Source: Mytilus trossulus (Eukaryota). From it: a DNA stretch of 64,000 nt. The stretch spans positions 63,674,001-63,738,000 of the forward strand of contig NC_086376.1 in the NCBI RefSeq assembly GCF_036588685.1, read 5' to 3'. Shown here piece by piece: positions 4,851-56,151 of the stretch. The notes below the pieces were generated by a model that saw nothing but the letters and a program-made list of their open reading frames with translations, had not been told where the DNA came from and ran no database searches. Numbering within the stretch: the stretch's first letter is position 1; each line of letters starts with the position of its first letter. Position numbers and translations under genes: made by a program.

Positions 4851-4927
4851 CATTTGCAATCGAGTGAGAAACATTTATTACGACATAAGTTAACTCATCA
4901 TAGATACCAGGACTAAATTTAGTATAT

Positions 4928-4971
4928 ACGCCAGACGCGCGTTTCATCTACAAAAGACTCATCAGTGACGC
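4928..4971 (-). ncRNA. Minimal type I hammerhead ribozyme, core intact
   Basis: Reverse complement reads gcgtca-CTGATGA-gtc ttttgta gat-GAAA-cgcgcg-TC-tggcgt. Confidence 0.8.
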
Positions 4972-7900
4972 TAGAATCCAAAAATGTTAAAAAGCAACCT
5001 AAATATGGTCTATTTCATAAAATTCCTATTTGTTCTTCATATTTGAAGAATGATAAGCATTATTGAATCATATCTTTATCTTTTAGAAAAAACTAGTATG
5101 AGCAAAACATGTTGTAGAAGAGCCATCTTAGATTTAACTTGATCCTTATCAATAAAACTATAAAAACCAAATCGATCTTATATCAGTCCTAGAGTAAGAT
5201 AAATCCCTATTTTTTTAACCAAACTACCTAAGGTTAAATAAGTTTACATCAAGGTTAGACCAGTTCTACTCAAAGTCAAGATAAATGTACCTTGACAATC
5301 AAAATGTAGAAAAACTGTGACCTTTAAGATGTAAGATGATACGATCAGTCCTTAAAAGGCATAACAAAAGAAGCAAATCCAGTTTTAAAAAAAATATTCA
5401 CTGAACCTTAAATAAAAAAAAATCAATCATTGAAAAAAAATATTTGAGTTGTAAAGTTTTGTAATGTTTTGATAGTATAAAGATGTATATGAGTTTATCA
5501 AAGGGTATAATGACAAATAAAGGTTTGGATAACCTGCCACCTGAATTATAGACCCGTCATATGTCATTTTCCCCCGCACTTAAAAGCGTATTTTAGAAGG
5601 GTTGATAAAACATGATAGTGTAGGTCATGACAATAATAAAAAGACCCATAGAAACCATCTTTAATGGGAAAATGTTATAAATTAAAATACATCTCTGCAA
5701 GGTTCTATTCATTTAAATTGTGCTCAAGAAGAAGTTTGAATAAGAAAAAAAAAATCGGATGACAGGTGACAAAGGAAGAAAAACTATCACCATGTGCATG
5801 TGAAAGGTCGACTTAAAAAGGGGTAAATGAAATAAAGACACTTATACAACATTAACCAAGGAAAGACTTAAAATATCACGACCGAACCCAAGAACAATTT
5901 CACGTGATGTTAAAAATGTTACAAAAAAAACAAAACAGTAGGAAAACGTCTGATAACTACCACAAAACTTATTAATTTGATTGTCGGTGTATAATGGCGT
6001 TCACATAATGACAAAGAATCCTTATATGTATGAAACGATTTAAACAAACTGATTTAGAGGTTTACTTCTGTAAGTTACCATTTTGTGAAAATGATACAAA
6101 TGTTTAAAAATTAATTTACTCTCTATAAATTTGTCAAAGAAAAATAATGGTAATAAGTGGCAAAGGCTTCTTTTATTTCAGAAATCATTCCAATCAGTTA
6201 TTATTGCGATTTCTGCTTGATAGATAAATACACGAGAATAATAATTGCCATTACAGGAAGGAAAATCTGCATACAAAAATATGAAGATAAGTTCTAATAT
6301 TTACAATACTCACGTATGTACCCAATCGAATTATACCCAATAATAAAAACCTTAAAATATTTTCTGAATTTAAAGTTGACGATAATTCAACGACCCCTGC
6401 TGATATATGTTTAATCTTTAGATAAGTAATTATATGAATTACGTGTTTTACGTATATAAAGATCATAAAATCGTGACACACCACAACAAAACTTTGAATC
6501 TTAAGCAAGTTGAAAATCTGAATAACGTGTCAGACTAAGAGTAGAATGCGCAATAGTTAATCTGATTATGTTTGATAATCTAAGATAAGTAAGAAAAGCG
6601 AATGAATTCACGTTTTGGTCGTTAATCCATTGAAATGGTAAATTTAGGTTGTAATACATGTAAATTATGAAATGCTTAATATGGATCTATATAAGATATC
6701 ATGTTATGAATACTTATGATGATACAACAAAAGTAAACTACGCTTCAATTTTAAAACTTACATAGTCACACTGCTGGTGTGCTCCCTCGTTAATTCATGT
6801 GTGTGAACATTCAATATGAAAATAAAGAGATGGTGTATGATCGGAGATAAGACAACTATACACCAAATTTCAAACTTAGTGAGTGTAGGCAATTTAAAGT
6901 AGCTTTACTGCCGTCAACAATGAGAAACCATTTTATGGTTCAATCTGCTATAAAATGTTCCCACATGAAACAAATCAACTGCGACAATTAAAGGATAAAA
7001 TGTATAACGAAAAACAAAAATGACAGACATGAACCAACGACAAATTCTAAAATACTGGATCCGTTCACATAGAATGCTGTTGGGTTACACATATATGAAA
7101 TCGCCAACCTTTCACACACAGACATGTTGTATTAGTCATTTTTGTAATAGAGATGATATTAAAATTCAGTCCTCCTTAATATTACAAAACCCTGCATGAG
7201 GTTTAGTTGCATAAGGAAGGTTGACCTAGACGAAGACATGGTAAAATGTATCTTAAAATCCTGTCATAAATAAACTCATCAAAGATACCAGGACTAAATT
7301 GAGTATATACGACAGACGCGCGTTCCGTCTAAAACATACTCATCAGTGACACTCGAATCCAAAAAAGTTAAAAAGCAACCATATATATGGTCTTTTTCAT
7401 AAAATTCCTATTTGTGCCTCAAATTTGAAGAATGATAAGCATTATTGAATTATATCTTTATCTTTTAGAAAAAGCAAGTATGAGCAAAACATGTTGTAGA
7501 AGAGCCATCTTGGATTTAACATGATCCTTATCAATAAAAAACCATAAAAACCAAATCGATCTTATATCAGTCCTAGGGTAAAATAAATCCCTATTTTTTT
7601 AACCAAACTACCTAAGGTTAAATAAGTTTACATCAAGGTTAGACCAGTTCTACTCAAAGTCAAGATAAACGTACCTTGACAATATCAAAATGTAGAAAAA
7701 CTGTGACCTTTAAGATGTAAGATGATACGATCAGTCCTTAAAAGGCATAACAAAAGAAGCAAATCCAGTTTTAAAAAAAATATTCACTGAACCTTAAATA
7801 AAATAAAATCAATCATTGAAAAAAAATATTTGAGTTGTAAAGTTTTGTAATGTTTTGATAGTATAAAGATGTATATGAGTGTAAAAAAGGGTATAATCAC

Positions 7901-9186
7901 CAATAAAGGTTTGGATAACCTGCCACCTGAATTATAGATCCGTCATATGTCATTTTCCCCCGCACTTAAAAGCGTATTTTAGAAGGGTTGATAAAACATG
8001 ATAGTGTAGGTCATGACAATAATAAAAAGACCCATAGAAACCATCTTTAATGGAAAAATGTTATAAATTAAAATACATCTCTGCAAGGTTCTGTTCATTT
8101 AAATTGTGCTCAAGAAGAAGTTTGAATAAGAAAAAAACAAAACGGATGACAGGTGACAAAGGATGAAAAACTATCATCATGTGCATGTGAAAGGTCGACT
8201 TAAAAAGGGGTAAATGAAATAAAGACACTTATACAACATTAACCAAGGAAAGACTTAAAATATCACGACCGAACCCAAGAACAATATCACGTGATGTTAA
8301 AAATGCTACCAAATAAAACAGTAGGAAAACGTCTGATAACTACCACAAAATTTATTAATTTGATTGTCGGTGTATAATGGCGTTCACATAATGACAAAGA
8401 ATCCTTATATGTATGAAACGGTCTAAACAAACTGATTTAGAGGTTTACTTCTGTAAGTTACCATTTTGAGAAATGATCCAAATGTTTTAAAATACTCTCT
8501 ATAAATTTGTCAAAGAAAAATAATGGTAATAAGTGGCAAAGGCTTCTGTTATTTCAGAAATCATTCCAATCAGTTATTATTGCGATTTCTGCTTGATAGA
8601 TAAATACACGAGAATAATAATTGCCATTACAGGAAGGAAAATCTGCATACAAAAATATAAAAATAGTTCTAATATTTACAATACTCACGTATGTAACCAA
8701 TCGAATAATACACAATAATAAAAACCTTAAAATATTTTCTGAATTTAAAGTTGACGACAATTCAACGAGCCCTACTAATATATGTTTAATCTTCAGATAA
8801 GTAATTATATGAATAACGTGTTTTACGTATATAAAAGATCATAAAATCGTGTCAGACCACAACAGAACTTTGAATCTTAAGCAAGTTGAAAGTGTGGATA
8901 ATGTGCCAGATTAAGGAATCTGAGAGTAAAATGCGTAATAGTAAATCTGATTATATATGTTTGATAATCTAAGATAAGTAAGAAAAGCGAAAAAAAAAAT
9001 CACGTTTTGGTCGTTAATCCATTGAAATGGTAAATTTAGGTTGTAATACATGTAAATTATGAAATACTTAATATGGATCTATATAAGATATCATGTTATG
9101 AATACTTGTGATGATACAACAAAAGTAAACTACGCTTCAATTATAAAGCTTACATAGCCACACTGTTTGTGTGCTCTCTGATTAAT

Positions 9187-9359
9187 AAAGGCAACAGTAG
9201 TATACCGCTGTTCAAAACTCGTAAATCTATGGACAAAAAACAAAATTGGGGTAACAAACTAAAACTGAGGGCAACGCATTGAATATAAGAGTAGAACAAC
9301 GACACAACATTAAAATGTAACACACACAGAAACGGACTAAGCATTAGACAATAACAAAT
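9187..9359. mobile_element. Short insertion present only in the second duplicate unit
   Basis: Absent at the equivalent site (~6790) in unit 1; flanked by ATTAAT direct repeats (9181-9186, 9360-9365). Confidence 0.75.
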
Positions 9360-11599
9360 ATTAATTCATTTGTGTGAACATTCAATATAAAAATAAAGAC
9401 AGGGTGTATGATTGGAGATAAGACAACTATAAACCAAATTTCAAATTTAGTGAGTGTAAGCAATTATAAGTAGCCGTTCTGCCGCCAACAATGAGAAACC
9501 ATTGAATAGTTCAATCTGCTATAAACTGTCCCTACTTGAAACGAATCAACTGCGACAATAAAAGGATAAAATTTTATAACGAAAAACAAAAATGACAGAC
9601 ATGAACCAACGACAAATTCGAAAATACTGGCTTCGTTCACATAGAATGCTGTTGGGTTACACATATATGAAATCGCTAACCTTCCACACACAGACATGTT
9701 GTATTAGTAATTTTTGTAATAGAGATGATATTAAAATTCAGTCCTGCTTAATGTTACAAAACCCTGCATGAGGTTTAGTTGCATAAGGCAGGTTAACCTA
9801 GACGAAGACATGGTAAAATGTATCTTAAAATCCTGTCATAAATAAACTCATCAAAGATACCAGGACTAAATTTAGTATATACGCCAGACGCGCTTTTCGT
9901 CTACAAAAGCCTCATCGGTGACGCTCGAATCCCAAAAAATTAATAATGCCAAATAAGTACGAAGTTGAAGAGCATTGAGAACCAAAATTCCTAAAAGTTT
10001 TGCCAAATACGGTTTTGTTAGGGCTATAAAGTTATATTAGCTCTTTAATAAACACAAGATGTATAAACACCATCAACAATTTCGGATAACATGCCTTCTT
10101 GGTTACAAACGCGTCAAAAGTCATGTTTCCCCACCACTTCAAGTAGCTGTGTGGACCGTAAAACAAATATTTTTATGTGCAAGTCAGCGCAGTGATAGAG
10201 AGACAAGCGAGAATTATCTGAAATGCACCGCTTTTAATCGGGGCATCTAGCATTCTTGTTGGTCAGTCTTTGGTTTTCTTTGATTTGTTTTGTGTACTTA
10301 TCTTTTTAGTTTTTAGCCACAATGTTGTTATTTTATTATCAACTTAGAAGTTTGGGTTCCTTTGGTGTCTTTCGTCTCCCTCTTATCAAGTACAATACGG
10401 TAAATAAAAATGCCATATAGGACTTCCAGTTAATATTTTTCGGTAAAAAAATTAATATTTTACCTTAATATATTGCTAAATTCAGTAGTTTACTAAACTA
10501 TTTTAGCTCTAATGTGGAAGCAAGTTTTCCTCGAGCTGTAGAGGTACGATTATCTTAATATCATCATCTTACTTTCCTCCAAGCACGTGGCAAATACTGC
10601 AGACGGTTCAACCTGGTCCTTTAAGAATAACCTATCCGCTTACGATGACATGTCTTTCTGACCATTATTTAAACTGTTAACACCGAACAATTTTTTCAAA
10701 AAGTTGTTTTAGATAATTGCTGCAAACGTTGTTTTCACTCTACTGCATCCGTTTGCTGTCCAAATTGTAATCAATGTCATTTCTCGTCTCATACGTTATA
10801 GATAAAGGCAAGTATTTAAAAAAGCTATATAAAACGTAACCAGTTATTTCGGAATAGAAAGTTGATGTTCCAGTTATGTCAAAGAACATCGGGTCCTTAA
10901 AGGCTTTTTAGATAAAAAGGTCACTCTTAAATCTAGCTGATAGACATCCCGTATCCACTTCACAAACAGTACACAATGGTCTTGAAGTATATATTCTAGG
11001 TGAAGTGTTTGTTTGTCATCTTGATTAATCTTATTGTGTTCATTGTATTTGGTGTCGTACAACTATATTTTTAACTTTAACTTTTTTTAAATTTTGGTAA
11101 TATTCTATTGGCGTGGGCGGGTATTTATACACTCTGACATTGTGTTTTTGTGCTAGGGTCATTTGTTTTGTAGTCTTCTTTTTTTTTTCTGCCTAAATGT
11201 AGGTGTTTGGTCTATTTAGTTTGTATATGCAATATTATTTTACTTTTTGTCTTCATATGGATAAAGATTGTAACATAATGTTCATTTTTTTCCTTTTTAA
11301 TGTCTGTTTGTTTTGTTCACATATAATATCATTATAATGATTTTTAATTTTGCGACTCTAATAAAATGATAGCTTTTGCTAGCTGTAAAACCAGAGTTTA
11401 TGTTCCATTTTCTACATAAGGAACTAAAGATTAAACAAGAATTGCAACAAAAAATACAATAGATTGTTTAAAATCTGAAAGCTTCCTCAAACATTCTGTA
11501 CAGTGTGGTCAAGACAAAATGACAAATATATTTCTTAGCAAGCAGATTATTGAACAAAGGGTCTTAAAGCTTACGTTTAAACTAAACCTTTACCGATTA

Positions 11600-28864: not shown

Positions 28865-30258
28865 GTTCGGCAGAATTAATTTCTGTCTACCCGTGCGAGA
28901 TGGACACAGATTAGACTCATAAGCGAAAGCTGAAAAAAAGTTAAAGGAAGAGAAATGACATGGTCTGCGAAAGCGCAAATTAGTCCACAGACATAAACTA
29001 TCATACATACCATGATTGAACTTTTTTATTTGCGCCCAACGCGCGTTTCGTCTACAAAATATTCATCAGTGAAAGTCGAATGAAAATATGTTAAAAAGGC
29101 AAAAGTGCTGACTACTGGGCTGGTGAGATACCCTCCATCAGCAGTAGCATCAACATAGTGGTTGTAAATAAACTCATGATACTATATTCTGTTCGGTTGA
29201 ATTAGTTTCTGTCTTCCTCGTGCGAGATGGACACAGATTTGACTTATAAGCGAAAGCTGAAAAATAGTTAAACGAAGAGAAATTACCTGGTCTGCGAAAG
29301 CACAAGTTAATCCTCAGATATAAACTTTCATACATACCATGATTGAATTTTTTAAGGTGCACCTAACGCGCGTTTTGTCTATAAAGACTCATCAGTGAAG
29401 GTAGAATTAAAAAATGTAAAAAAAAAAACAGAAAAAAAGTACGATGTTGAAAATATAATAAAGAAGATGTGGTATGATTGCCAATGAGGCAACTGTCCAC
29501 AAGAGACTTAAATGGCACAGACATTAACTATAGATCACCGTACGGCCTTCAACAATGAGCTAAGCCCATACCGCATAGTCAGCTATAAAAGGCCCCGATT
29601 AGACAATGTAAAACAATTCAAACGAGAAAACTAACGGTCTAATTTATATAAAACAATGAAGCATTGAGTAACAAAAACATTTTGGACGAATACAGCTAAG
29701 GTTATCCAATCATGAAGTAGAAAAACCGTAGTACTTAAAAAATTCAAAGTTTAAATTATATTTGATTCGGTACTTTGTAAACAGTTAGTTTATAATTATG
29801 AACATACGCATAATAAATTAAGTCAGCAAAGAAGTGCAGACTACTAGGCTGGTGCTACCCTCGCGGAATTAAAACTCCATCAGCAGTTGCATCAACCTAG
29901 TGGTTTTAATTAAATCATCATAGATACCGGAATTGAAATTTTATATTAGCGCCAGATGCGCGTTCCGTCTACAAAATACTCAACATTGATGCCATTATCA
30001 AAAAATGTTAAAAAGTCCAAATCAAGTACGAAGTATAAGAGCATTGAGGATCAAAAATTGCTTAAAGCTTTGCCAAATACATCTTAGGTAATCTAACCCT
30101 GAGGTATACACACTTAAGTATTCCATAAAGTTTAAGTAATATTCGATTCGGTATTTTGTAAACATTTAACTTATAATTGTAAACATATCAATGATAACTC
30201 AAGTCAACACAGAAGTGCTGACTACTGGGCTGGTGATACCCTCGCGAAATAAAACTCC
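28865..30258 (-). mobile_element. Degenerate tandem array of hammerhead-repeat monomers, interrupted by a dispersed repeat at 29461-29655
   Basis: Three degenerate hammerhead cores (~29030-29075, 29357-29400, 29950-29992) and three gtgctgactactgggctggtg-like blocks (~29105, 29834, 30214). Confidence 0.8.
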
Positions 30259-31629
30259 AATAACATCTATTTTGTTATTAGTTGAATGACAGGAACTTTG
30301 GAGTTCCGGTTCACTGTCGTTCTATCAACTTCAACCAATACAACGTCCAACAAATGAAATGTGTGCCCACTTACTTCATTAAATGGTTCCTGTTTTTGTC
30401 GTTTTACTGAAATGCTCCTTACCGTTTTTGCTGACCAAAATATGATTTCGAACCTACCAAATGGCGGTTATCCCAGTAACACAGATATACGCACGGAACG
30501 CATATTATTATATATGATTTTACTTTTATATTTTTTTACAAAAGTTAACGGACGAAATTTGGGTGTTTTGACTTGGTTTGTTTTGACTTGGTTTGTTTTG
30601 ACCAAATACGTTAACAAATTCGCAAAATACAGGATCGGATAATACTAACACCATATGTTTTTATAAAAGAGAGGGAGGCAGAAAATAGCTTGGGGATATT
30701 TACACTGATGTTACCATCTGCAATGATAATACAACAGGATACCAAATGCCGTTGACTTTCATTGGTTAAATCAATTGAAACTGACCTAAAACCAAACTTT
30801 ATCATGCAATAAATAAAAAAAATTCAAAAGTTATGCACCATAATGAGGGGGCGTGACAATATGTTACAGATATTATTAGAAGTACATATGCTCATTCAAC
30901 TGTATATCAAATATCATTGAATTACCATCAGTGTATTATTATATACTGACCTTATTACCCAACTTAACATGTAAACTATGCAAAAGTTTCAAAGTTAATA
31001 GACCATAACTTGAGGGTGAATCAATTAATATATAGGTATAGGAAGATGTGGTGTGAGTGCCAATGAGACAACTCTCCATCCAAACAACAATTCAAAAATT
31101 ATACCATTATAGGTTAAAGTACGGAATATGTATGGAAAAAAGATGACATATTAAAAAAGTAAAATAGCAAAAATACCTTTAGTAATATCAAAGTACGTAA
31201 TTCAAATTCACGACAACTCAGGAACGTATTCGTGATTGCAAAAATCAGACCAATGATAATAAAAAAGCTAATTGTTGGATATTACTATTTTTAGAGCGGA
31301 AGTAAAAAAGACAACAGATAGTCCCTTAATAACCCGTAATTCATACAGAGTCTGATTGACGCAGCTGCAGTAAATTAGATTCATTACACAATGAAGATGT
31401 ATGTATAAGTTTTCTTCTGTAACCATCTTTTCTCTTATTTGAGTTATCACATAAAATGACAGTTATTTCTTTGTATAATATGATAGCGAGTGACCTAGTA
31501 TTAAAACGGTAAAAATGAAATAATTTACAAAGCAAATCAAACTGAAATAAATATACAACAGTTTGTACACTTCCGGTTGTTTCTGTTAACCAAATTGAAA
31601 AAAAAGTTATATCTAGTGCAGCGACATTT

Positions 31630-31731: not shown

Positions 31732-33708
31732 ACAATATTGGGCATGTTTATAAATGTTTTATACGTGTATTGACAGTTTTATAGTTTTAATTGTAGCCAT
31801 CGTTAGGTGTAGTATAAACGTTATTCAGAAAAATATCATAATCAATTCTCTTGTATTCGACACGAAAGCGTTATAAGCTTCTTCATTCCCCAGTTTCTAA
31901 GCCTCATACAAAAACAGTGATGTTTTGTCTGACATTGACTTAATTATGTATAATTATTCATTTTTTCAAGGAGTTTTTTTTACTGCTGTTATTAATCTAA
32001 CTATTAGTGGGTTGTCTTTTTGATGAACTTTTGAAGTCTCAATTTAAAAACGAAATTATGACATTGCCCTTGAATTGAGGTAGCGGTTGTCTCTTACATT
32101 CACGTTTGAATTGTTAAACATTGTCATTTCGGGGTCTTTTATAACTAACTATGTTGTACGGGTATGGAATTTGCTCATTGTTGAAGGCCGTAAGGCTACC
32201 TATATTTTTGTGTCATTTTTGTCTCTTGTGTAGAGTTGTCTCATTAGCAAGCATACCACATCTTCCTTTTTATGGTGATAGTTCACAGGGGGTATAAAAA
32301 GTTCCCAGGGGGCGCACCTTTATTCATTTACTAGTATTCCTTAACCGACAACAAAACATCGTTTGACCATTATTTATTCGGATAATCCTTGACACAATTC
32401 GACTCGGGCAAAGAGTGTTGCTTGCTCATTACATTAACTCCACATCTCGATGAAACTTGCTTCAGAAAAAGGGTTCGCAATGAACGAAACCGGTAATATA
32501 CAGTTGTATTATGATTAAATACATTTTGATTTTTAGTGGTTTTATCATATTAAATGTCAACCAAAGATTAAAGTGTCCCATCAAGAGATAGCTTCAAGCT
32601 AAAATCGAAATTTAATAATTATTTATATAAATTAACCCAAAAGTATCAAGTGTTAAAGGATGTTAGTCAATATTAACAGAAAAAATCTATGTTCTGGAGG
32701 ACGGTTGGGAGTCATTTTCAACAGATAATATCTATTTTTAATATCACAAAATGACTGTTGGGAATCATTAACCATAATTACCTGTGTCAATCTACCCTTA
32801 ATTCAAGAAATCGATGCGAGGTCGAAATTGTGTTTATTTCATTGTTTCACTTTTGATGTCCCTTTATATAGGATTTATAATGATTGCAAATGGTAATAAG
32901 GTACTTTAACCCAAAGTATGTGTTATGTGGTTAGTAAACCATCTCCTGGGTTTGTTATATTAATTGCGTTCTATTTGTGTAGTTTCAGCTTCAAGCAATG
33001 TAGTCTTATCATTTTTGTGTGTAAAGCCTTTCACATAACAAACAATAACAATCAAACCCAAGGAGTAAACAAAGACTGACAAAACCAGAGGACATTTACA
33101 TCAACAGTCATAAATAATAATTCAGAATTCCCCATTAAAAAATTAAAAAAATTAAAACCATTATAAGATTAGATACTATTATAAAATATATTAAATAGGA
33201 TTATAAATCTCTAATGATATATAAAATTTCTATATGAGTAAAGACATTTCCAATGACATAGAACATCTTTGTATTGGTATAAAAAAAAAAAGAAATCTGC
33301 AATGCTATGCTATATGACATGTATGTATTGGCATCAAAGAATATGCCATGTCTTCTAGTGTTGATAAATGCAAAGAGGGCAATAATTCTTAATCATTCGT
33401 AAGCGAAAGATAGACAAAACCATAATCTGAAAACATCATCGTAAAGACTAGAAAAAGTTGAAAAAAACCCAGATCGAGCTTCAAGTATCGTACAAAGACA
33501 CATGAAAGATGCAGAAGAAATTCAAGGTATATGGTGAGGTAAAATGCACCCATAGTGATACCCTGCGTGTTATTTCTGACATATAAAAAGCAGTTCTGCT
33601 CCACCAATGATACCTGCTTCTAGTATATTAGTCCTGACATGTCAAAAACAGTACTGGTCTACTCATGGTACCAAGTAGTTATCAAATGTATCAGGATTAT
33701 AATTTAGT

Positions 33709-33752
33709 ACACCAGACACGCGTTTCGTCTACATAAGACTCATCAGTGACGC
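33709..33752 (-). ncRNA. Minimal type I hammerhead ribozyme, core intact
   Basis: Reverse complement reads gcgtca-CTGATGA-gtc ttatgta gac-GAAA-cgcgtg-TC-tggtgt; lies in repeat ~33680-33912. Confidence 0.8.
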
Positions 33753-34129
33753 TCAATATTTATAAAGCAAAACAAGTACAAAGTTGAAGAGCATTGAGGA
33801 TCCAAAATTCCAAAAAGTTGTTTCAAATACGGCTAAGGAAATATATACCTGGGATAAGAAAATCCTTAGTTTTTCGAAAATTCAAAGTTTTGTAAACAGG
33901 AAATTTATAAAACCGTGTTATTCCTACTATGTACAAAACTTTACTGTCAAATCTGAACTTTTAATCTGAAGCTATAAAAAAATCTAATCTGTAATGGAAA
34001 AAAAACTTTTTTTCAATTTTCAACACATCATGCACATTTAAGGGTTAAACATAGATTGGCCTGTACATGTGTCGTATCATTAATTAATATCTGCCAACAT
34101 TTGACTCCTCGTTTCATGGGGTTCGACAG

Positions 34130-35400
34130 ATCTGATAGCATGCATTGCCCTATTTAACAGGTTTGCTATCATCGGCCTTTTATTTTTAAAGGTCTGCTAT
34201 CGTGAGCTTTGTGAATTATCAAGATCTGTATCAAGTAGAGTCTCGTTGAAAAGATCTGCTATCACGTGAATTCTTGTTAGTTTGAAAAGATATGTGCCTT
34301 CTCATTTCAAACATTCTGCTTTCATGTACTGTATTGTCATTGCCAAGTTTTTAAGATCTGCTTGCATATGAATTTTTTTTAATTCTGCTATCGTGTCCTT
34401 TCTTATTTTGAAAGTTTTTCTATCATGTGCGGTTTTCCTTCAAAAGTTCATCTATCAGGACGGGACTTTGCATCTTAAATAATAAGCTACCAACAAAAAT
34501 TTCACAAAAAGTAAAAATCTTATACACAGACAAAATCAAAGGCAAACACTGATATTGGTATTATATCAGTAATGACACAAATTTTATGCCACATGATATA
34601 AGGACAACATTATTTCTTATGACATTCTTCTAACCCTTCCGGAGTGGAGTTCGTGTGTTTCTTATCTATTATTTGTAACTGTTGATGTAAATGTCTTTTG
34701 GTTTTATCAGTTTTTGTTTACTCCTTGGTTTTGATATTGTTATATTTATAAATTAACTGTTTACCAAATTTTGAATTGTTTGAAATACTTTTCTACCTCA
34801 TGCATAGATTACCTTAGCTGTATTTGGAAACTCTTTTAGGAATTTTGAATCTCAATGCTCTTCAACTTCGTATTTTTTTTTTTTTGCTTTTTTAACACTT
34901 TTGGATTCGAGCGTCACTGATGAGTCTCTTGTAGACGAAACGCGCGTCTGGTGTATATATAGAATTTAGTCCTGGTATCTATGATGAGTTTATTTGATTG
35001 TTATTGTCTATTAACTAGTATAATAATTTGACCAATTGTTCTCTCAATTTCAAAATATGATTGTGACATAAAATCAGTTCTATCCTTAGATGTTAAATTA
35101 ACATGTGATATGGATTATCGACCTTTTGTCTCGTTATCATTGCGTATTATATCTTTATTTCTCCTGATGGAGATAAAATAGTGAGTAAATGATAAATAAA
35201 TCATTACATATGGATGTATGTGCATCAAATATTTGACGCAATCACTAGCTTATGTAGTAGGTTAGTGAAAGCTTTAGTTGATTAATAAATTAATCTCTCA
35301 AATATCAACCAGTATCTCAAACATGTTTTAGTAAAGAATGCATAAAATCGTAATGAAATAATATCTTCGACGTCATCTAAATGACCCCCGATGACTGTCG
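34130..35400. repeat. Old duplication shared with ~40465-41330, including a degenerate ~32-bp tandem repeat
   Basis: Repeated gatctgctatcatgtg motif at 34130-34460 and 40465-40910; atccttagatg...tatcgacct...tatatcttta at 35080-35157 and 40983-41058. Confidence 0.65.
34911..34954 (+). ncRNA. Minimal type I hammerhead ribozyme, core intact
   Basis: gcgtca-CTGATGA-gtc tcttgta gac-GAAA-cgcgcg-TC-tggtgt; predicted cleavage after C34948; lies in repeat ~34740-34995. Confidence 0.85.
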
Positions 35401-39563: not shown

Positions 39564-39955
39564 GGTATATATGATGAGTTTGTTTACAACCACTGGGTCG
39601 ATGCCACTGCTGGTGGAGATTTATTTCGCCGAGGGTATCACAAGCCCAGTAGTCAGCACTTTTTGTGCTGACAGGAATTGTCATTGATATGGTTATATTT
39701 ATAAATGCACTGTTTAAAAATTGTAGAATTTTTTGAAATACTAAGGCTTTTTTACCTCAGGCATAGATAACCTTAGCTGTATCTGGTATAACTTTAAGGA
39801 ATTTTGGTCCTCTATGCTCTTCAACTTCGTACTTTATTTGTCCTTTTTATCTTTTTTGGACTCGAGCGTCACTGATGAGTCTTTTGTAGACGAAACGCGC
39901 GTCTGGCGTATATATTAAATTTAGTCCTGGTATCTATGATGAGTTTATTATACAA
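39564..39955 (+). mobile_element. Full ~365-bp monomer of the hammerhead-bearing repeat (PLE pLTR / retrozyme-like)
   Basis: Terminally redundant: ggtatatatgatgagtttgtttacaa at the start and ggtatctatgatgagtttattatacaa at the end; contains the hammerhead. Confidence 0.85.
39866..39909 (+). ncRNA. Minimal type I hammerhead ribozyme, best copy
   Basis: gcgtca-CTGATGA-gtc ttttgta gac-GAAA-cgcgcg-TC-tggcgt; predicted cleavage after C39903. Confidence 0.88.
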
Positions 39956-42744
39956 GGTACTTATATTGATAAAATTTAGTGAACAACCAAAACAGATATA
40001 ATAGGTTGATGTGACAATAATGCGGATCCAAATCCTTGTAAACATTGATGACAAATAAATACCAAACAAATACAAAAACAAAATGCTTTAAACAATCGAG
40101 CAAACATACATATCAATCTAACAAGGATGCCAGCCAAAAAAGGTATAGTTGATAAAAAAAAAACGTCATAATAGATTTCATGATTAAATTTTGTTAAGCC
40201 AGAAGCGCGTTGCATCTCTACAGTAAATTCATTACAAAGGTCAACACCATGAACACCTGTTAAACAATTATTTGATAGAAAGTTTTTAGTTAGAGTTTAT
40301 ACATAAAATCAAAAATTGATCAAATGTAAAGCTATGTTTCCTCATTTGACGAAAATAGCGAAAAGAACATCCTGACGAAGTATCCAGTTTTGTCACAAAA
40401 CAGTCTTTAACTTCGTATTGATAAATGATACATTTTGGCAATAATAGAAACAGAAGTTTACAAGTCTGTATCATGTGCCGTCTCATTTCAAATATTTTAC
40501 TATCATGTGTTGTCTTATTTTAAAGGATCTGCTATCATAGATATAAGAAGATGTTGTATTAGTGCTAATTAGACAGCTCTCCATCAAAGTCAAAATTTAT
40601 AAAAGACAATTATAAGTCAAAGTACGGTCTTCAACACGGAGAGAACAGCAAGCTAAACAGGTGTCCAAAAATGCCGACTCATCTCTACGTTAGGAGATCT
40701 TCTATCATGTGTCATTCAATTCTTTAAATGATATGCTATCATGCGTTTTCTCATTTTAAAGTCTTACATTCATGCGCATTATCATTTCAAAAGAGCTGTC
40801 ATGTGACTTTTCGTTTTTAAGATCAGCAGCATATGCTGTCTCGTTTGAAAAGGTGTGATATCATGATTGTGACGGCTTATCTTCAAAATTCTAATACCAT
40901 GTGCGGTCTAATAAGTATAGTAGTTATTAATTGTTCTGCAAATTTCAAAATATTATTGCTATTTAAGCTCATATAATACCTTCATCCTTAGATGATAATT
41001 AACATTTTGTTTGTATATCGACCTGTTGCTTCGTTATCAGTTTTGAATTATATCTTTATAAATGTTTAATATATTATTACGTATGAAGACTTGTGCAACG
41101 AACATCTGTATAAGGCTTATGTTTGTGCAGTGAGATTAATAAGGCATTAACTACCAAATGGATTATCATCGAATTAAAACCGGATTAAGTTAATTAGAAG
41201 ATTATGTTCTTAAATACCAACAAGCATGGTAAAATCACCGTTTTCATATAAACAAAGCCTGAAATCGTGATAAAGTATCAGCATGTCGTGCGTATTTAAG
41301 AACTTGTCGTCATCAAGATGACTTCCGACAAGCACATATCAGAAAATGAAAGACAAAACCAAAAAAGTTATACAATAGCACAATAACGGGATGTGAAAGC
41401 ACCGTGACACGCTATATGTATCAAAGAAACAATAAAAGGCATATAGAAAAAGCACACCAGAAAAATGAAAGACAAAAATACGAGAATATCATTAAGAATA
41501 ATGACTGGATGTACAAGTACCACAAGTATCTTAATCACAATAAAAACAAACAAACATTTAACAAAGAAGCACATATCAAATTAAACAACGTTAATCATTG
41601 CTTTCTTATTGTGTTGAATTTTGAATGGTTAGATTAACATTGACTATAACGTAGAATTGCGCGTTTGACGTCAGAATGTAGACGTCGCATATGTAGAGAT
41701 CGATATAAAAGAGTTTTATCGTTCAAAGTATGAAAATAAATTAGTCTATAGTGTTTTAGGCATAGCCTATTACCTTCCCTTTTTGTCGCTTGTCTATATG
41801 CGTATTGTGTATTTCTATTGAAAAAAGGGCCAAGTCATTATGTATAAAAGTAGCCCAAAAGGGCATATAGGCAAAGCATCATCAATATGAAAGACCAGAA
41901 TACAAAACATTATAGTAGAATAACACAATAGCGGGATGTATAAGTCCAGAGATATTAATATATTCCATTTTAATGTAGTTTTATTATTAATATTATTATT
42001 ATTATTCACCTGAATGATCGCAAAGATCCAACATGGCTGAATAAAAAATATGTTAACTTATATATTAACCTGTATAGGAATGATATGTTGTTTGTCTTGT
42101 AAGTCTATCGTACTACTACGGGTGTCTTATATAAGAATTCAGATTTGAGCACTCATGTAATCCGAATTACAACAACACATCATCTGACAATGATGACATT
42201 TTTTTCCGAAGTTTTTCGTGGCTTCAGTAAACATAAAATAATCATTCAATTCTGGTATATTTGATGCGTTTACCTTAAACAGCAAATGGAAGGGCATATC
42301 TGATTCTATTTGATACTTAAGTTTCACTAAATTCCGTGTAACGTAAATCAACGGTATATTGCTGGACCATCTGCAAGTTCTACAAAGGAATTGTCTATTA
42401 GATTGACATAAATTCTGTTTGCAGTGACAGAAGGTATCCCGAAATACAATGAAAATGTTTACCCTCGTACATAGTACTAGTGGTATACTAGTTATCAATT
42501 GTGTATTCTAAAAACTAAAAAAAACAGATCTGGATTATCTTATTTCACTCTGGAAAAATCCTATCGACTCTTCCCCACCATTCCCCGTGTCAAATTGGAA
42601 AAGAAATAATACAACATGCTATCAATATAAAAATGGTAGCATGCACTTTATGTTAATTGATTTTTGGCATTTCATACATATTGTGTTAATAGTGAACATA
42701 AAGGTTGAATGTTTTACATCAATAAGGACTGGTTTTTAGTGATC

Positions 42745-42850: not shown

Positions 42851-44791
42851 TTTCTTTATTTTCTTAAGTGTTGGAGTTCTATTAGGCATTTGTCAAAACA
42901 GGGTATTTTTTTAGTGCTGTCGTAAGCTCATCTGATCAAATTCATATATAATTTCACTTTTTACTAACCATCATGTAGTATCTACCCTTTATGTGATCTT
43001 TATTGTTCCAAAAAAAATCAGACAGATTTGGCTAATACATTTTCATGTGGTTCCCAGTTATATTTCGATATGTACAAAGGGATTAAATTGTTAAGAGGGT
43101 ACACAGGCAAAATTTGTTGTGAAATTTTTCACATGAATTTCACATAAACTTTTACAAAAAAAAAGTTCGTACTTTTCATGATTTTAATCAGAATTAAAAA
43201 TTTAATGTTATTTGCATTATGTTATTTTGTCATGTGTACTATTGTTTGTCTGTTTGTCTTTTCATTTTTAGCCATGGCGTTGTTAGTTTATTTTCGATTT
43301 ATGAGTTTGACTGTCCCTTTGGTATCTTTCGTCCCTCTTTTATAACCACTGGGTCGATGTCTCTGCTGGTGGACATTTTGTCCCCGAGGACATCATCCGC
43401 CATGTAGCAAAACTGCAATTGCATGAATTTATGAAGATCAAACAGGAAACTGGCTCGGACGTCGCCCAGGATAAAAAGGTCTGAAACAGACGTCACCATA
43501 GACACGGTGTCGTCTGATACGGCAGGTGTCCCCGCATCACCAGAAATGACAATTATCTCAAACATGACTCATTCAGATCATCGTCCTAGTGACAATAGCA
43601 ATATTACACATAAACAGCCATGTTCGGTTCTCCTTAAAGACATTTTGGTTTTTGATGACACAGTACAATACTGTCGCATTTCGAAATGTGAGACCGAAGG
43701 CTGCAAAACTTCTGAAATTTTAATTACAGATGCGGAATTCACAAGCAATTTGACCAATTAGTCATATTTTATCAGAAGTTACGGTGATATGTATTGTAAA
43801 TCGATAAATGTCGTCTACGGATTAGAGCACAACCTTTGCGGATTAGTATACGTCGGTTAAACGAGAGGAAGGCTAAACAAACGTATGTGTGGTCAAAGAT
43901 CAGATTAATCTCAATGCTAACGACATTCTATACCATCATTTCAATCAGCCGATCATTCCATCGTTTCTATGACAGTTCGCATTATCGAAAAGATATACCA
44001 TAGCTCCTATCTTTCAACGACCCTCCGTAGACAAAAAGAGGACTACTGGAATAGACAATCGGGAACGGCGACATCTTATGTTTGCAATGACAATATTGAC
44101 GGTATAGGTATTATATCCAGTCCTTCGTGTAACTCGGTGAATGTGATGAATATTTTCAACTCGACTCTTCGACGTTGACGCAGTCATGGTCATCGTCTTT
44201 ATACATCACCTTATCTGCATGATGTCTTAATTAATGACATGCTGCCATTTATACAAAAGTCGGTAGGTATTCATCACATTCGCACGAAACTTTATTCATT
44301 ACCCCTTTAAAACTTCATTCTCTGTTCAATTTAGGTTAAGAATCCACTGTAACAAACCCTCATTCAAACCAATACAAATTTGAAGCTATAATTTCGGATA
44401 TTGCCAGTCACAGACTTTTCATGCCAGTATGCATTGGAAAAGATGAAAAAGAGAAAATATATTTCCTTAATCTTTCCTTTGCCAACAAAGGTCTCTATGG
44501 CGTCAACTAAGCCAATATCCTTCATCATAAATTGGTTCAATCGAAAATACCAGACCGTACCAATCATTTATTTTACCTATACCAAACCTTTAATTTCAAC
44601 TAAAATTTTTAATTACAAACACGTTTTGCAGGATCTCGATATTGACGACTTCAAGTCTAAACCTCCTGATTGAACTTGTGCTAGTTCATTGTTAATAACA
44701 CTTCTCTAAGAAATGTGTTATCGAAAGGTCCGAAATATCGTGAGCCTAAATCCATTAATTGAGAATACAACTTTGAAATGTTGTTGGATTC

Positions 44792-45642
44792 CAGGGTTTC
44801 CGCTGGCGGTCGCCATTTTCGCAATTTGCGAAAAAATAACAATTGTGGCGATTAAAATTTGTCATTGGTGAAAGAATTTGGCGAAAGAAATATATAACTC
44901 TGACTTTACCGATCAGACAATACTCGGAATTCACCTTGAACTCGTTAAGATTTTGACCGAAAATCAATAAGCGGCTGATTGCATTCATAGCTATCGACAT
45001 CAAAGGACTAATTAATAAAGGTGTTGATTGTATGATATGACAAAATGATATAGTTAAATGGCTTCTGTCATATGTCACAAAAAGGTTTCTTAACCACTTT
45101 GCGACGCACGTGTTTAAAGCAAATTTTTTACGCTTCCTCTCCTTCTTTTGTATGATAGTCCAGAAAAGAAAATTGCTGTTATGATGAAAAATGTTCAAAA
45201 GCAAGAAAGGTCTCTGATTTAAAACTTTATCATTTAACTTTCATATATATTATTGATTTGAGTAAGTACTTCAAAGTCATTTCGGTGATACACGTGTTTC
45301 AAGCATATACTTTAACTTATTTCCGATGGTCTAGAAAAGAAAACTGTCGTTATGAAGAAATCTATTCAAAAGGTTGGCACGAGAGTAACCCTTCGATGTA
45401 ATGACTACACCTTACACGAGGTATCAATTCCAAGTGATAAGATGCTTCGTTTTGTTGTAAAAACCACTTCTTACTTAGTGTGCGTGTGCGGGGGGGGGGG
45501 GGGGGGGGGGGCTGAAAAAAAGGAAAATTTTAAAAGAAAAATATATTTGTATTACTTAGCGAAAAAATAATAAAGTGGCGAAAAATATATTGTTTTGACG
45601 AAAGAAGTGGCGAAAAAAATAATTGAACCAGGGGAAACCCTG
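44792..45642. mobile_element. hAT-like MITE nested in the PLE
   Basis: TIRs CAGGGTTTCCGCTGG / CCAGGGGAAACCCTG; 8-bp TSD TTGGATTC (44784-44791, 45643-45650); internal G run at ~45490-45511. Confidence 0.92.
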
Positions 45643-45869
45643 TTGGATTCAGTCGAGGATTATGCTAGACAATGGGCTAAGCGCGAGAAGGAAGACGTAT
45701 AAGCTCTTTCCGAATGGATTAGAGCAGTGAGGTAGGTCGTTGATACAAATCAGAATTAAGAATCTGAATGGGTCTATCAATGCCCATGCTACGTCAATCT
45801 TTAAAGACCCAAATGTTGCAAAAAAATTATCCTACCTCCATGACAAGTATGTCCCCGCAGATACATTAA

Positions 45870-46488
45870 GGGCATACGATACAGTTACAGGGGAGGTAAT
45901 GACGTTGCTAACGTAAAATGTTATTTTCGCGACGTCAAACTGTGACATATCAAGAAAAGATGCATTTTTCGACTGATTTTTATCATTCAAACTGATTTAA
46001 TTTGAAAACGAGTTCATGGACCCCTATTTTTCAAAACAGCAATTTGTTTCATTTTGCAGGGAGATTATGTGACCCAAATTTTATAAAACTGTAAATAGAG
46101 GATTTTTTTTAATTTTGATAAACATGCAGCAAAAAATGACGTATTTTCCTTAATTCATGAGCATTTGATAAATACGAGTTATTTCTGAATAAAAAATGCA
46201 TAATGTTTTATGATACTTATAAAATACAGAAATTACCGATTATTTAACAAAGAACAATTTGTGTTTATCTTTTATAACAAAAAAGTTATGTCTTTTTTTC
46301 AAAAAAGAAATTACGGCCACAAATCTGAATTTTGAGCAAATATACAAAATTTCGACCTCATTTTGCTCAAAAAGTAGCACATGAAGGTATATTTTTTATT
46401 ACATATTTGATTTAATCAGGTAAAAACTAGCCTATATGCAAATTTTTACGAACTTGTAAATACTGGATCGAAACTGTATCGTATGCCC
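45870..46488. mobile_element. Kolobok-like MITE nested in the PLE
   Basis: TTAA|GGGCATACGATACAGTT ... AACTGTATCGTATGCCC|TTAA; removing it restores the reading YINCLINELG. Confidence 0.9.
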
Positions 46489-49233
46489 TTAACTGCTTGA
46501 TAAACGAATTAGGTATTGACAATTCACTTGGAAACTCAACATATACCCTCACGACACTCACCAAAGAGGAAATCCTGGATAACGATAGGTCTGTTCTATG
46601 TTCCTTTGGAATTTCAACCAAAAATGAAGAACTGGATCTTCCATCACTGCATTGGATACCTAAACTACATAAGTGTCCTTACAAACAACGGTATATTGCT
46701 GGGTCTTCCAAGTACTCCACGAAACCTCTTTCTAAATTATTTACATCTATTTTATCAGCAATCAAAGACGGGCTTCAGAGTTATTGTGAAACTGTCTATT
46801 CTAGAGGTGGCGTGAATCAGATGTAGATCCAAATATCTTTTAGAGTACATTCAATCTAACTCTCTTTCATTTTGTAACAGTATTAAAACATTTGACCTTT
46901 CTACTCTTTACACAAGAATTCCACATTCCAAACTTAAAGACGAATTGAAAGAGTTGGTATTGATTTGCTTCATAAAAAAGAATGGCCAACGTAGATATAA
47001 GTATCTTGTTGTAGGGAGGGATAAATCCTACTTTGCAAAGGATCACTCTGAATCAAACAGAAAATTCTCTGAAACTGATATTATCAAGATGCTTGATTTC
47101 TCGATTGACAACATATTTGTTACTGTCGGCATTCCAATGGGAACAAATTGTGCCCCTCTACTTGCCGACTTGTTTCTTTATTATCATGAGGCTTACTTTA
47201 TGCATGAACTTCTAAGGAAGAAAGATAAGAAGTTAGCGATATCCGTTAACTCTACTTTCCGCTATATAGATGATGCTCTTTCACTGAATAAATCAAAATT
47301 TGACTATGTGGAACGCATCTATCCCATCGATCTAGGGATAAAGGATACTACAGACACATTTAAGTCGGCCTCATATCTTGACTTACATCTAGAAATTGAC
47401 AATGAGGGTCGGTTGAAAACAAAACTTTACGACAAAAAAGATGATTTCAGCTTTCCAATTGTGAACTTCCATTTCTTAGTAGCAACATTCCAGCAGTCTC
47501 ACATGAACTGATTTCACATGAGTTTCAAGTATAAGCTCGTTTTAGGTGAATTTACGTGAATTTTACGTGAGATTCACATGAATTTTAATTCAAGTGAAAT
47601 TGATGTGAACGAAATTTGCCTGTGTATAAGAAGATGTGATATGAGTGCAAATGAGACAAATCTCCATCCAATTCACTTTTAAAAAAAGTCAATCATTATA
47701 GGTCAAAATACGATCTTCATCACGGAGCCAAAAGCATTAGTCATGGTCATTAAATTTATAAGCAGAATTCATTTTATGTGATTCAAATTGCTTCTTGACC
47801 ATGAAAGGTGAATAATTTATTATCATAATTAACAAAACCATCATTTCAGGACTTTGAAAATATCTAGAGGATTTCTTGGAAATCTCGAGATATTATATTA
47901 AAGATGAACAGTGTTCACCCTGAGTGATTGCTGGTCACTTCTCACTAGTGGTACGTCCACTCAAGATATAGAGAAAATACAATGCAAGAAATCTATGTGC
48001 AGAGAATTTAAAAAAGTTTCCAATTTTTTATAATCTTTTATTGCTGATTTAACTTCCTAGAGTATTTGCTAAAACAAGAACATGTTTATTATGTATGTTG
48101 TTTCCAATTTCAACCAATTTACTTTAATGTTCGAAATAATTGTCAAAACACAAATTGGAAAGGGATTAATATAAGCTGCAAAACTTGTTTCCCAATCCAC
48201 TATCAACAAATATGTTTAAACTAACACAAAGTATACTAAAAAGTCATCATTTCAGAGCAATAACTCCTTTATCCGTCATCCAATTGTCTAATAGTTTTGG
48301 GTTAATTTTTTTTTTATAGATCTTGTATGGCTGATCAATTCTGCTGTCCATACTTTCTACCTAGCTACCTATCATACCTTTTTCTATAATATCATACCTT
48401 TCCCTGTACATTCAATTAGCAAAAAACATTGTTTTTTTCAAAACATATTCATTTTGGGGCTATCAGTTATCTAGGTTTCATCTAAAAGTAGATAATATTA
48501 GTAATTTTGTAGATTTTGACCATGTTTGCTGTTCACGGTTTTTACCTGCTTTGAATATGAAAAAAAATTGTTATTTTCTAGTAATTCTTGACATGTGTGT
48601 TGACAAACCATAAACCATGGCAGTTAAGTTGTTTGATTGACCAGAGTTAAAAACACAAACTTAATACCATGATGATAAAGTCTGATACTAGTTTAGTTGT
48701 TTTAGAGAAAGATTTTAAAAATAAGCGTCTGTAACAAAAATCGTCCTCTAAGTCATAAATGGGTCAGCCAATTGTTTAGATTGTATAAGAATGTTTGTAA
48801 ATCTTGCATTTCTGGTCATTTTCTGTCTTAACAGTTTTTCTTCTTCATTTGATCTCTGGAAGAGTATTCTCACCTTCACTCATTCCACGTCCTCTGATCT
48901 TTTAAATATACCTTTCAGATAAATTTTTTGTGATGAAAAGCAAAGACTTGAACATTTACCAAAATACACAATTGAAAGGCAACAACTATGCTGGAGTATG
49001 ACCAGATTATGTTGGTGAGAATATCCATTTCAAAGCATATTTGCCTAATTCAATACAAATCTGACAAGAGGAACACCATTAGATGTACATCAGCTATTAA
49101 AATGACATTTCATTTTTACTAATATTGCATTCCCCGAAATTATATATAAGCTATTTATTATATTACTATCCACAACAACAAGTTTATTTGAGTGTGTTTA
49201 ATACAGTATCTTATCATTATAAAATCACAAAAG

Positions 49234-49281: not shown

Positions 49282-49936
49282 CTGCAAATAAATAAAATAT
49301 TTTATTATAACAATAATATTCTGCAGAAAAAACAATCTCCTTGGAGGATGAATTTATCTTAGGTAAATCTGATATTATGTTGTTGAACTGATGTTTATCC
49401 ATGGTTATTATAGTAGATTATACTAGGTATATAGATAAGACACATGGTTTTACACATGGTTTTTTTTTTTTGGCCCTTTATATCTTCCTATTTGGTGTGA
49501 GCCAATGCGCTGTGTTGAAGTCTGTACTTTGACCTATAATGGTTTACTTTTATAAATTATTACTTGGATGGAGAGTTGTCTCATTGGCACTCATACCACA
49601 TCATCCTGTATCTATGTTTAATAAGGTATTTTATTCAGTTGATATAAGAACCCTACATAACAGACCAAAATTCATCTTTTATTTCGTATCTGAATGTTCC
49701 AAATTCGAATAAAAATCTTGCATCAGTGTGATTTCTATCAGAAGCAGCTGCCAGATGAAGACTTTGTCCTGGTGAGAGATGTCATTTTCACATGAATTAG
49801 TTTGTTTGACTGTTTGAAACTTTTCTTTGGTTTTTGAGAACTATTTTATCAGATCAGTTAACTCAGTGTGGAAATCGTTAATTCCAATCTAATTTTATAC
49901 ACATCTCTATTTTGTTTTTATATGAAATCAACATAC

Positions 49937-50069
49937 TTTAATAATATCTAATCCACCAATCAGCTCTCCCTTTACATAGATTTGTGGATATGTTGGCCAG
50001 TTAGAGAATTTCTTCAGACCTTGACGAACATCTTCATCAGATAAAATATCAAATGTATCATATGGCACT
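49937..50069 (-). CDS. GLRX3: GLRX3 exon ([44 protein letters not shown])
   Basis: Second WPTYPQ/GGLD block; tttttgtAG acceptor and GTATGT donor; phase 2-0. Confidence 0.96.
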
Positions 50070-50872
50070 CTACAAAAATAAATACACAACTTTATTCACT
50101 CTGCAAAAATAGATACACAACTTTATTCACTCTATAAAAATAGATACACAACTTTATTACACTACAAAAATAGATATACAACTTTATTCACTCTATAAAA
50201 ATAGATACACAACTTTATTCACTCTACAAAAATAGATCACAACTTTATTTACTCTACAAAAATAGATACACAACTTTATTCACTCTATAAAAATAGATAC
50301 ACAACTTTATTCACTCTACAAAAATAGATACACAACTTTATTTACTCTGCAAAAATAGATACACAACTTTATTCACTCTACAAAAATAGATCACAACTTT
50401 ATTTACTCTACAAAAATAGATACACAACTTTATTCACTCTATAAAAATAGATACACAACTTTATTCACTCTACAAAAATAGATCACAACTTTATTCACTC
50501 TACAAAAATAGATACACAACTTTATTTACTCTGCAAAAATAGATACACAACTTTATTCACTCTATAAAAATAGATACACAACTTTATTTACTCTGCAAAA
50601 ATAGATACACAACTTTATTCACTCTATAAAAATAGATACACAACTTTATTACACTACAAAAATAGATCACAACTGTATTTACTCTACAAAAATAGATACA
50701 CAACTTTATTCACTCTACAAAAATAGATCACAACTGTATTTACTCTACAAAAATAGATACACAACTTTATTCACTTTACAAAAATAGAAACACAACTTTA
50801 TTCAATCTATAAAAATAGATTCACAACTTTATTCAGTCTACAAAAACAGATACACAACTTTATTCACTCTGC
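50066..50872 (-). repeat. 31-bp minisatellite (~26 units) made of the GLRX3 splice acceptor
   Basis: The + strand unit cactctacaaaaatagatacacaactttatt reads AATAAAGTTGTGTATCTATTTTTGTAG|AGTG on the sense strand; the last unit is the real acceptor of exon 49937-50069. Confidence 0.95.
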
Positions 50873-52026: not shown

Positions 52027-52403
52027 TTAATATTTATTGGTATATCATTTCAGATTAAAAAGGGCAATGAGTAATATCATTGTTCATAACGTCAGGCTCC
52101 AAAATAAAAATAATATCACACTAATATTTGAATATCTATTGATCAGGGTATTCTTAATCAATTACAAGGTGTTGGGTATGTTTCCAAAAAAATAACCAAA
52201 ATGATTCACATTCTGAAATGGTTATTGTTCTACATAACTTCTTACTTATCTATAGATATCCATTCAACACTAGTTAAGCATACAAATATTTTTCCTTAAT
52301 ATTTCATTTCCCATGTTTCCAACTAATATTTCCCATTGTTGATACAACTTATTCAACGATGACTGTCTTTTGTCACTTAATTTCTTAATCTTTAAAAAGA
52401 ATA

Positions 52404-56115: not shown

Positions 56116-56151
56116 TATATTATTAACAATAAACTTTGTCTATAGTTGTAC

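Follow-up and report, generated by a model that had tools for sequence, protein, structure and literature searches.

A Naiad-type stem-loop block just beyond the fixed 3' ends of hammerhead retrozymes in Mytilus trossulus

The enzyme that copies animal retrozyme circles into DNA, and the site at which it starts, are open in the literature, where Penelope-like elements (PLEs) are mere candidates; the study of the mussel retrozyme itself names PLEs as a candidate helper only (PMC7229834). The same question is raised by a hammerhead-bearing repeat in a 64,000-nucleotide stretch of the Mytilus trossulus genome (NC_086376.1, positions 63,674,001 to 63,738,000), here called the window. Three points are addressed below: what the repeat is, where its copies end, and which element could supply the enzyme.

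The repeat and its hammerhead ribozyme

The copy under study is a retrozyme subfamily B insertion at 39564..39949 (+), made of one 365-nt unit plus a terminal repeat of ~20 nt. It is 5'-truncated, has a fixed 3' end near 39949 and is without a target-site duplication. RNA reads connect 39947 to 39583, giving a unit of 365 nt and bearing out the terminally redundant unit of ~365 nt in the preliminary description; the end placed there at 39955 is corrected to a real 3' terminus at ~39949. In the 1.30-Gb genome the exact hammerhead core was matched 18,635 times and a control pattern 0 times, and the unit is non-coding, as expected of the very high-copy, non-autonomous hammerhead element that had been proposed. 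These exact cores often stand in arrays with a period of 354-355 nt (subfamily A), near relatives of the copy form arrays with a period of 360-366, and subfamily C, with a period of 350 and different stems, adds a further 5,288 exact cores. Units of the three subfamilies (A, B and C; 350-366 nt) occur both in tandem and dispersed, with a GC content of 37-38%. In a random sample of sixty 10-kb stretches, 40 retrozyme segments made up 1.43% of the DNA.

Divergence within arrays was mostly 0.1-3%, with a few up to 9%, against 5.5-6% between arrays. Shared variants recur with a period of 3 or 4 in several arrays, a sign of DNA-level expansion or of multimeric templates. Whole-circle folding was weak, subfamilies A and C lying within ~1 sd of base-shuffled controls and B at ~2.5 sd. 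Near the start of contig C1 (C1:158000-167900), a 1,054-bp higher-order repeat with a retrozyme piece adjoins TTAGGG-like repeats.

The hammerhead lies at 39866..39909 (+), where the Rfam model Hammerhead_1 matched with 32.5 bits (E 3.4e-4), under the 34-bit gathering score, in agreement with the placement of a hammerhead at 39866 in the earlier reading. Further Hammerhead_1 matches in the window are at 34911-34954 (+) and 33709-33752 (-). The motif consists of a 6-bp stem I, CUGAUGA at 39872-39878, a 4-bp stem II (GUCU/AGAC, 5-nt loop) where 3 bp had been counted, GAAA, and a 2-bp stem III with a GCGC loop, the palindrome ACGCGCGT being present in the stem III region as described. The core CUGANGA / GAAA / NUH is present with helix I open, and cleavage is predicted after C39903. 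The label "minimal" did not hold, since a minimal hammerhead is one without helix III (Cervera and de la Pena 2014, PMC4209133) and helices of 6, 4 and 2 bp are the canonical size set of that paper, in which a canonical metazoan type I motif has a helix I of 6 bp, a helix II of 4 bp, a helix III of 1-2 bp and a palindromic loop. The marks of minimal PLE/Terminon ribozymes (no helix III, a helix II of 7-8 bp, a helix I of 4-5 bp, and a place in the pLTR of an RT-coding element) were absent from this non-coding unit. Judged by its sequence, the ribozyme is canonical metazoan type I and not the minimal PLE type.

Compensatory changes across copies were compared in eight rows, one mis-addressed row being left out. 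Four pairs were changed on both sides between subfamilies A/B and C (one in stem I, two in stem II and one in stem III), and the palindrome was kept between them. The helices of the three subfamilies are thus maintained by double changes, so that hammerhead cleavage has apparently been selected for. Only subfamily B folds a distal extension of stem I, and published mussel hammerhead motifs are without most loop I / loop II contact nucleotides (PMC7229834). The unconstrained MFE of isolated motifs differs from the hammerhead fold. A short-stem-III variant, with a 6-nt palindrome giving one base pair and a tetraloop, has 178 exact copies genome-wide and fills whole arrays (loci L075, L076, L079, L087 and L097); by analogy it looks dimer-dependent, resembling the amphibian type. 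An isolated hammerhead-like word at 14092-14120 (-), with a long stem II and no stem I, had no further copy among the loci compared.

The copy was matched by 3,072-7,549 reads per run in all four raw RNA runs (85% likeness), equivalent to ~240-1,030 in every million records; of these reads, a few percent come from a flanking repeat. Sense reads were in ~3-11x excess over the stem-loop block described below in the three runs that look stranded, and in those runs they also predominate along the body of the unit. In three runs, 431-611 reads per run depart from the copy at 39949 and continue into flanks of various kinds; molecule ends did not accumulate over the copy in the four runs. The suggestion that the element produces RNA is therefore upheld by sense transcription and by head-to-tail RNA, whose joints are common in the reads and fit circles or tandem transcripts alike.

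In M. galloprovincialis, type I hammerheads lie in low-GC repeats of 350-390 bp, retrozyme circRNA is abundant in gonad and mantle, circles are the main retrozyme RNA form in mussel tissues, and northern blots show RNAs of 350-400 nt (PMC7229834). The present element is similar in its mussel host, repeat size, low GC, high expression and ribozyme families without the usual loop-loop contacts, and the 353-nt clone reported there compares with the 354-355 nt of subfamily A. It differs in number (at least 18,635 + 5,288 exact cores, against ~5,000 in a draft assembly there), in its three subfamilies and in its lack of target-site duplications. The features by which non-LTR retrozymes are defined were found, namely a type I hammerhead, tandem repeats of 150-450 bp, GC <45%, non-coding sequence and abundant transcription (4/4 runs); target-site duplications of >4 bp, which the definition treats as optional ("when present"), were not. 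Repeat and ribozyme are almost certainly the known mussel retrozyme, matched by sizes and anatomy, not base by base. Both are ordinary for a mussel, and the Naiad hairpin link is the new part.

A profile of the copy at 39866 found all nine copies of the preliminary description in the window (nhmmer), plus a tenth, faint match at 40185..40231 (-; E 0.062), a heavily decayed hammerhead remnant. The nine are not independent: those at 4928, 7309 and 9881 are tied by a local segmental duplication with common flanks, and those at 29030, 29357 and 29950 form one array, leaving ~5 independent insertions; at the random-genome density of 40 segments in 600 kb, 4.3 would be expected. The copy density of the window is therefore near average after discounting local duplications. 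Besides the copy under study, the window holds a 5'-truncated subfamily B copy at 34731..34995 (+), with an intact hammerhead at 34911-34954 and a fixed 3' end, and a 5'-truncated subfamily A copy at 33673..33912 (-), with its hammerhead at 33709-33752 and also a fixed 3' end. A decayed array at 28993..30259 (-), with three mutated cores at ~29950, 29357 and 29030, is partly duplicated and interrupted by an unrelated 200-bp repeat. Three 5'-truncated B copies within 4886..10012 (-), at 4886-5005, 7267-7376 and 9839-10012, all stop at the fixed 3' point. Among the cores given as intact, those at 39866 and 34911 stand; the core at 4928 has GAT for GAC, so that the basal pair of stem II, conserved as G-C, becomes G-U, and the copy at 33709 has a non-palindromic GCGU loop III with its base pairs kept.

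Several other features of the window were recorded. The segmental duplication (4884-9946) is tandem, with a period of ~2.4-2.6 kb and 92-94% identity, and its boundaries coincide with retrozyme 3' ends. The unrelated dispersed repeat of ~200 bp has about a dozen window copies (12517-13264, 20724-20920, 29453-29655, 31024-31124, 40537-40641, 47625-47729, 49444-49615, 53688-53884 and 55920-56119 among them), of which one splits the decayed retrozyme array and one adjoins a minisatellite. An exon at 14837-15493 (+) encodes a neuropeptide precursor in which units of RPGW, KPGW, APGW and TPGW recur ahead of GKR, which we take to be of the APGWamide type. A glutaredoxin-3-like gene spans at least 49937-61750 (-) in at least seven exons, whose translations appear to form a thioredoxin domain and three glutaredoxin domains, and one of its introns holds, next to an exon, a tandem repeat of ~61 bp (50066-50929). 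The absence of retrozymes from introns, read earlier as a hint of selection, carries no statistical weight: 0.8 segments are expected in this one mapped gene and P(0) is ~0.45, so that intron depletion is unsupported.

A stem-loop block shared with Naiad, and the insertion ends

Self-comparison of the window matched 39583-39640 to 43339-43395, the start of a decayed, interrupted PLE at 43225..47496 (+) that lies 3.4 kb from the retrozyme copy and is 87-90% identical to intact copies elsewhere. It contains a pLTR piece (43225-43343), a stem-loop block (43345-43407), a GIY-YIG region near 43800 and an RT (46431-47511), the endonuclease preceding the RT. Intact relatives have a unit of 3,370 bp and 1,000-aa ORFs that are 0.5-2.7% apart. 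In this single ORF, GIY-YIG (135-172, weak, E 0.034) is N-terminal to the RT (RVT_1, 645-854, E 1.8e-4), both under the Pfam cut-offs, with a CxC motif (CTC) at 431 and DKA at 558. A protein search with the ORF returned 87 relatives, nearly all unnamed, and no PDB match. The family shows partial pLTR tandems and 5' truncation, and a pattern search of the 3,370-bp unit found no CUGANGA..GAAA hammerhead core.

Published Naiads are characterized by an N-terminal GIY-YIG, CxC, DKA, RT, pLTR tandems and 5' truncation (Craig et al. 2021, PMC8557442) and are without canonical hammerheads (PMC8557442); the clade reportedly predominates in bivalve genomes. From the order of the domains, the motifs and the 5' block in common, we infer that 43225..47496 and its intact relatives are a Naiad family and the likely helper. 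Both ends of the published Naiad_Mgal consensus are present in the genome, and the 3,370-bp family, which is nearest to the retrozyme block, differs from the 4,116-bp Naiad_Mgal. A second Naiad family matches the published Naiad_Mgal/Mcor ends (loci L179-L195); its block has an extra side hairpin, and some of its ORFs exceed 900 aa.

The retrozyme block at 39589..39652 (+), a putative RT-binding or start signal, comprises a 7-bp outer stem (39592-39598/39644-39650), a 1x4 internal loop, a 6-bp stem and a conserved bulged core. This 62-nt block is the only sequence common to the retrozyme and the 3,370-bp Naiad (84-86%, E ~1e-14), on which ground a derivation of the retrozyme from the Naiad pLTR was rejected. 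It lies at the 5' start of the hammerhead-less Naiad and once in each retrozyme unit. The block folds as a bulged hairpin, with z of -2.8 to -3.4 in three of the four copies folded and -1.9 in the decayed window Naiad. Fold energy picks no strand: in 3/4 blocks the reverse complement has an equally good or better fold. Across 12 genome rows, 98% of cells were paired (38-54% in slid controls) and 2/23 pairs were changed on both sides; these doubly changed pairs within the genome do not beat the control, 230/500 shuffles reaching the count. Neither the block nor the Naiad unit had an Rfam match to E 5, and the block was accordingly discarded as a known RNA family.

The exact core word stands at or near the 5' start of 11/54 published Naiad consensi, those of oysters, ark shell, mussels, two hemichordates and toadfish, and is missing from 43/54; looser versions of the block open Naiad_Olur, Mphi and Amil. 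Between species the outer stems differ with pairing kept, as read by eye and unscored, which would be stronger evidence than the within-genome counts. The combination of hammerhead and block was not found in a second species among the 11 metagenome pattern matches examined, and generalisation to other animals was dropped, as 10/11 were judged chance and the remaining one was of the same type as subfamily C. Hammerhead-free tandem mini-Naiads of 131, 140 and 228 bp, each a block plus a short pLTR tail, form arrays at L177 3284-4200 (G000:C12:27544284), L178 and L183; the 131- and 228-bp arrays end at the same point as retrozymes.

Retrozyme segments have a fixed 3' end, immediately ahead of the block and ~40-48 nt downstream from the hammerhead cut. 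In the random sample, 29/40 segments end within -12..+6 of the block, where 2.1 are expected; the proportion was 133/168 for distinct non-edge segments in a pool that includes loci chosen for carrying copies. The median offset from the block was -3 in each of the three subfamilies (A, B and C; n = 39, 42 and 13) and -2 and -3 for the two Naiad families (n = 43 and 41). The offsets spread over ~10 nt, and chance matches to T/A-rich targets blur those of all five families alike. As a pattern, the association of the hairpin with fixed ends at matching offsets has good support. At a few loci (L032, L035 and L103) Naiad 3' ends run straight into sense retrozyme; such junctions made up 4/82 flanks, two of them in loci chosen for retrozymes, and would reflect insertion into copies or a switch of template, in numbers too small for a choice between the two.

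Retrozyme 5' ends scatter over the unit, with no pile-up at the hammerhead cleavage site when the subfamily A pattern was extended genome-wide. Extension across and then beyond the site reduced the exact matches from 13,843 to 11,672 to 10,578. Copying does not stall at the cleavage site, because the loss per added base was 3.4% across it and 3.2% further on. Likewise, 27/29 fixed-end segments run past the cleavage site. Target-site duplications of at least 9 nt were found in 0/84 young fixed-end segments (control mean 0.9), which excludes such duplications above control level in this set.

A proposed route of copying and its alternatives

The hairpin shared with Naiad probably recruits the Naiad RT and fixes the start of copying a few bases upstream. 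In the proposed route, transcription of arrays and copies, predominantly in the sense direction, comes first and was observed here; the hammerhead would then cut the tandem RNA to monomers that are ligated to circles, as published for the Mytilus family. As the fixed ends suggest, Naiad protein would bind the hairpin and nick AT-rich DNA, with cDNA primed ~3 nt 5' of the block and ~45 nt downstream of the cleavage site. The RT would then copy through an intact cleavage junction, on a circle (the preferred template) or an uncleaved tandem. Random stops would account for the 5'-truncated pieces, short-repeat monomers and homogeneous arrays, and the observed lack of target-site duplications would follow from the same process.

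The start lies ~45 nt behind the cut and nearly all fixed-end segments pass the cut, so the template should be a circle, an uncleaved tandem or re-entered RNA; of a cleaved linear monomer, the 46-nt tail from the cleavage site to the fixed 3' terminus (39904..39949, +) would be the sole part upstream of the RT start. A circle is preferred because the hammerhead appears to be under selection, circles dominate in tissue and arrays are more uniform within than between. A ribozyme-made circle is unneeded for arrays, because mini-Naiad arrays form without a hammerhead; these mini-arrays, like the shared variants that recur periodically, show that arrays can also arise by other routes.

Those other routes are the ground for a rather unlikely alternative, in which Naiad acts through the block on an uncleaved tandem, or on linear RNA with template jumping, while arrays grow in DNA and the hammerhead and circles are passengers. 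It would accommodate the hammerhead-free mini-Naiad arrays, the variants with a period of 3 or 4 and the tandems that Naiad forms without a CUGANGA..GAAA core, and hammerhead mutants leave Poseidon insertion in vitro unaffected (PMC11167929). It is harder to reconcile with helices kept by double changes across three subfamilies, which argue that cleavage is selected, or with circles as the main RNA form in mussel tissues (PMC7229834). Array units are also mostly 0.1-3% apart, against 5.5-6% between arrays, and a linear n-mer would yield at most n-1 blocks, so that arrays could not grow in this manner alone.

Two further readings assign the block another function, and both are improbable. According to the first, the block is an unrecognised self-cleaving ribozyme or processing signal, cut just 5' of the block; the cut would make the RNA 3' end for ordinary TPRT, replacing the hammerhead missing from Naiads. 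The block does lie at the very 5' end of Naiads, the place of ribozymes in other retrotransposons (PMC7761336), its bulged core is invariant while its stems vary, and Naiads are without canonical hammerheads (PMC8557442). Against a cut stand the Rfam search of the Naiad unit, negative to E 5, the spread of end offsets over ~10 nt and the RNA reads, which cross the site and whose ends do not pile up; cleavage at a further site 45 nt away from the hammerhead would moreover destroy the 350-400-nt RNAs seen on northern blots (PMC7229834). According to the second reading, the block works in DNA, as an internal promoter or as an endonuclease recognition or resolution site, with DNA cutting setting the ends. 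This would suit a fold energy that is not strand-specific, the position of PLE promoters at the pLTR/5' UTR boundary (PMC8557442) and the need for the Penelope tail in endonuclease recognition (cited in PMC11167929), but the stems change and still pair, with the G-U/G-C and U-G/U-A interchange typical of RNA, and they tolerate an inserted side hairpin.

The original reading, a minimal, dimer-dependent PLE-pLTR hammerhead excluded from introns by selection, is highly improbable: the palindromic stem III could form a double hammerhead, tandem arrays abound, the 178-copy short-stem-III variant exists, and canonical motifs with a weak helix III are said to prefer dimers (PMC4209133), but a minimal or dimer-dependent ribozyme was rejected on the canonical helix sizes and on the cloned mussel monomer, which cleaves itself at ~0.1/min (PMC7229834), the unit is not the pLTR of either Naiad family, having only the block in common with the 3,370-bp one, and the intron absence has a P of ~0.45.

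Relation to other elements and significance

In SINE-LINE tail sharing, the RT-recognition structure of the helper is taken over by its non-autonomous partner. The retrozyme differs in that its signal stands beyond the insertion end on the 3' side and would be copied on a second pass only, which again implies a circular, tandem or re-entered template. A precedent is the PLE Poseidon, whose RT initiates within its RNA and depends on the stretch that follows the initiation point on the 3' side (Frangieh et al. 2024, PMC11167929). The Poseidon_Ac RT needs ~55-60 nt 3' of the start, uses an AC-rich start region and inserts into AT-rich targets; it belongs to another PLE clade and has two start sites and a 30-40-bp tail (PMC11167929), whereas one end cluster and a defined cross-phylum hairpin are found here, the two systems being likened by description and not by sequence comparison. 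By this analogy, we infer that the block is the Naiad counterpart of the Poseidon internal-start signal, borrowed by the retrozyme.

Xenopus retrozymes have been linked to the pLTRs of hammerhead-bearing PLEs and show mild intron depletion (bioRxiv 10.64898/2026.07.22.740005). That preprint likewise argues that retrozymes are non-autonomous PLE partners, on the basis of pLTR homology and with no mollusc sampled; the partner proposed here is hammerhead-less, and the shared piece is a hairpin just beyond the 3' terminus, not a pLTR. The published Naiads (PMC8557442) agree with the present family in domain order and lack of a hammerhead, and consensi among them open with the same block; the Naiad passages of that paper describe no conserved 5' RNA structure and cite a retrozyme link as a general hypothesis only. 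The main text of PMC7229834 describes no fixed 3' end and no shared hairpin. Literature searches on Naiad in connection with retrozymes, stem-loops or RNA structure gave only the Xenopus preprint and Craig 2021 as relevant, and the retrozyme-Naiad hairpin link was not found in print, although subscription journals, Repbase reports and supplements may hold it.

The shared hairpin and the matching end offsets single out one helper, whose ORFs are intact in the same genome, and the hairpin points to an undescribed cis-element of Naiads. The block is a short, mutable signal suited to direct in vitro test. Tentatively, and with somewhat more doubt than confidence, mussel retrozymes may be seen as circular-RNA parasites of Naiads, carrying a captured hairpin ~45 nt behind the cut so that only circularised RNA would be a complete template. 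If that is true, the hammerhead would have a direct role in transposition, and a portable signal of ~65 nt would turn any RNA circle into a substrate for a telomerase-like RT, in a rolling-circle form of target-primed integration.
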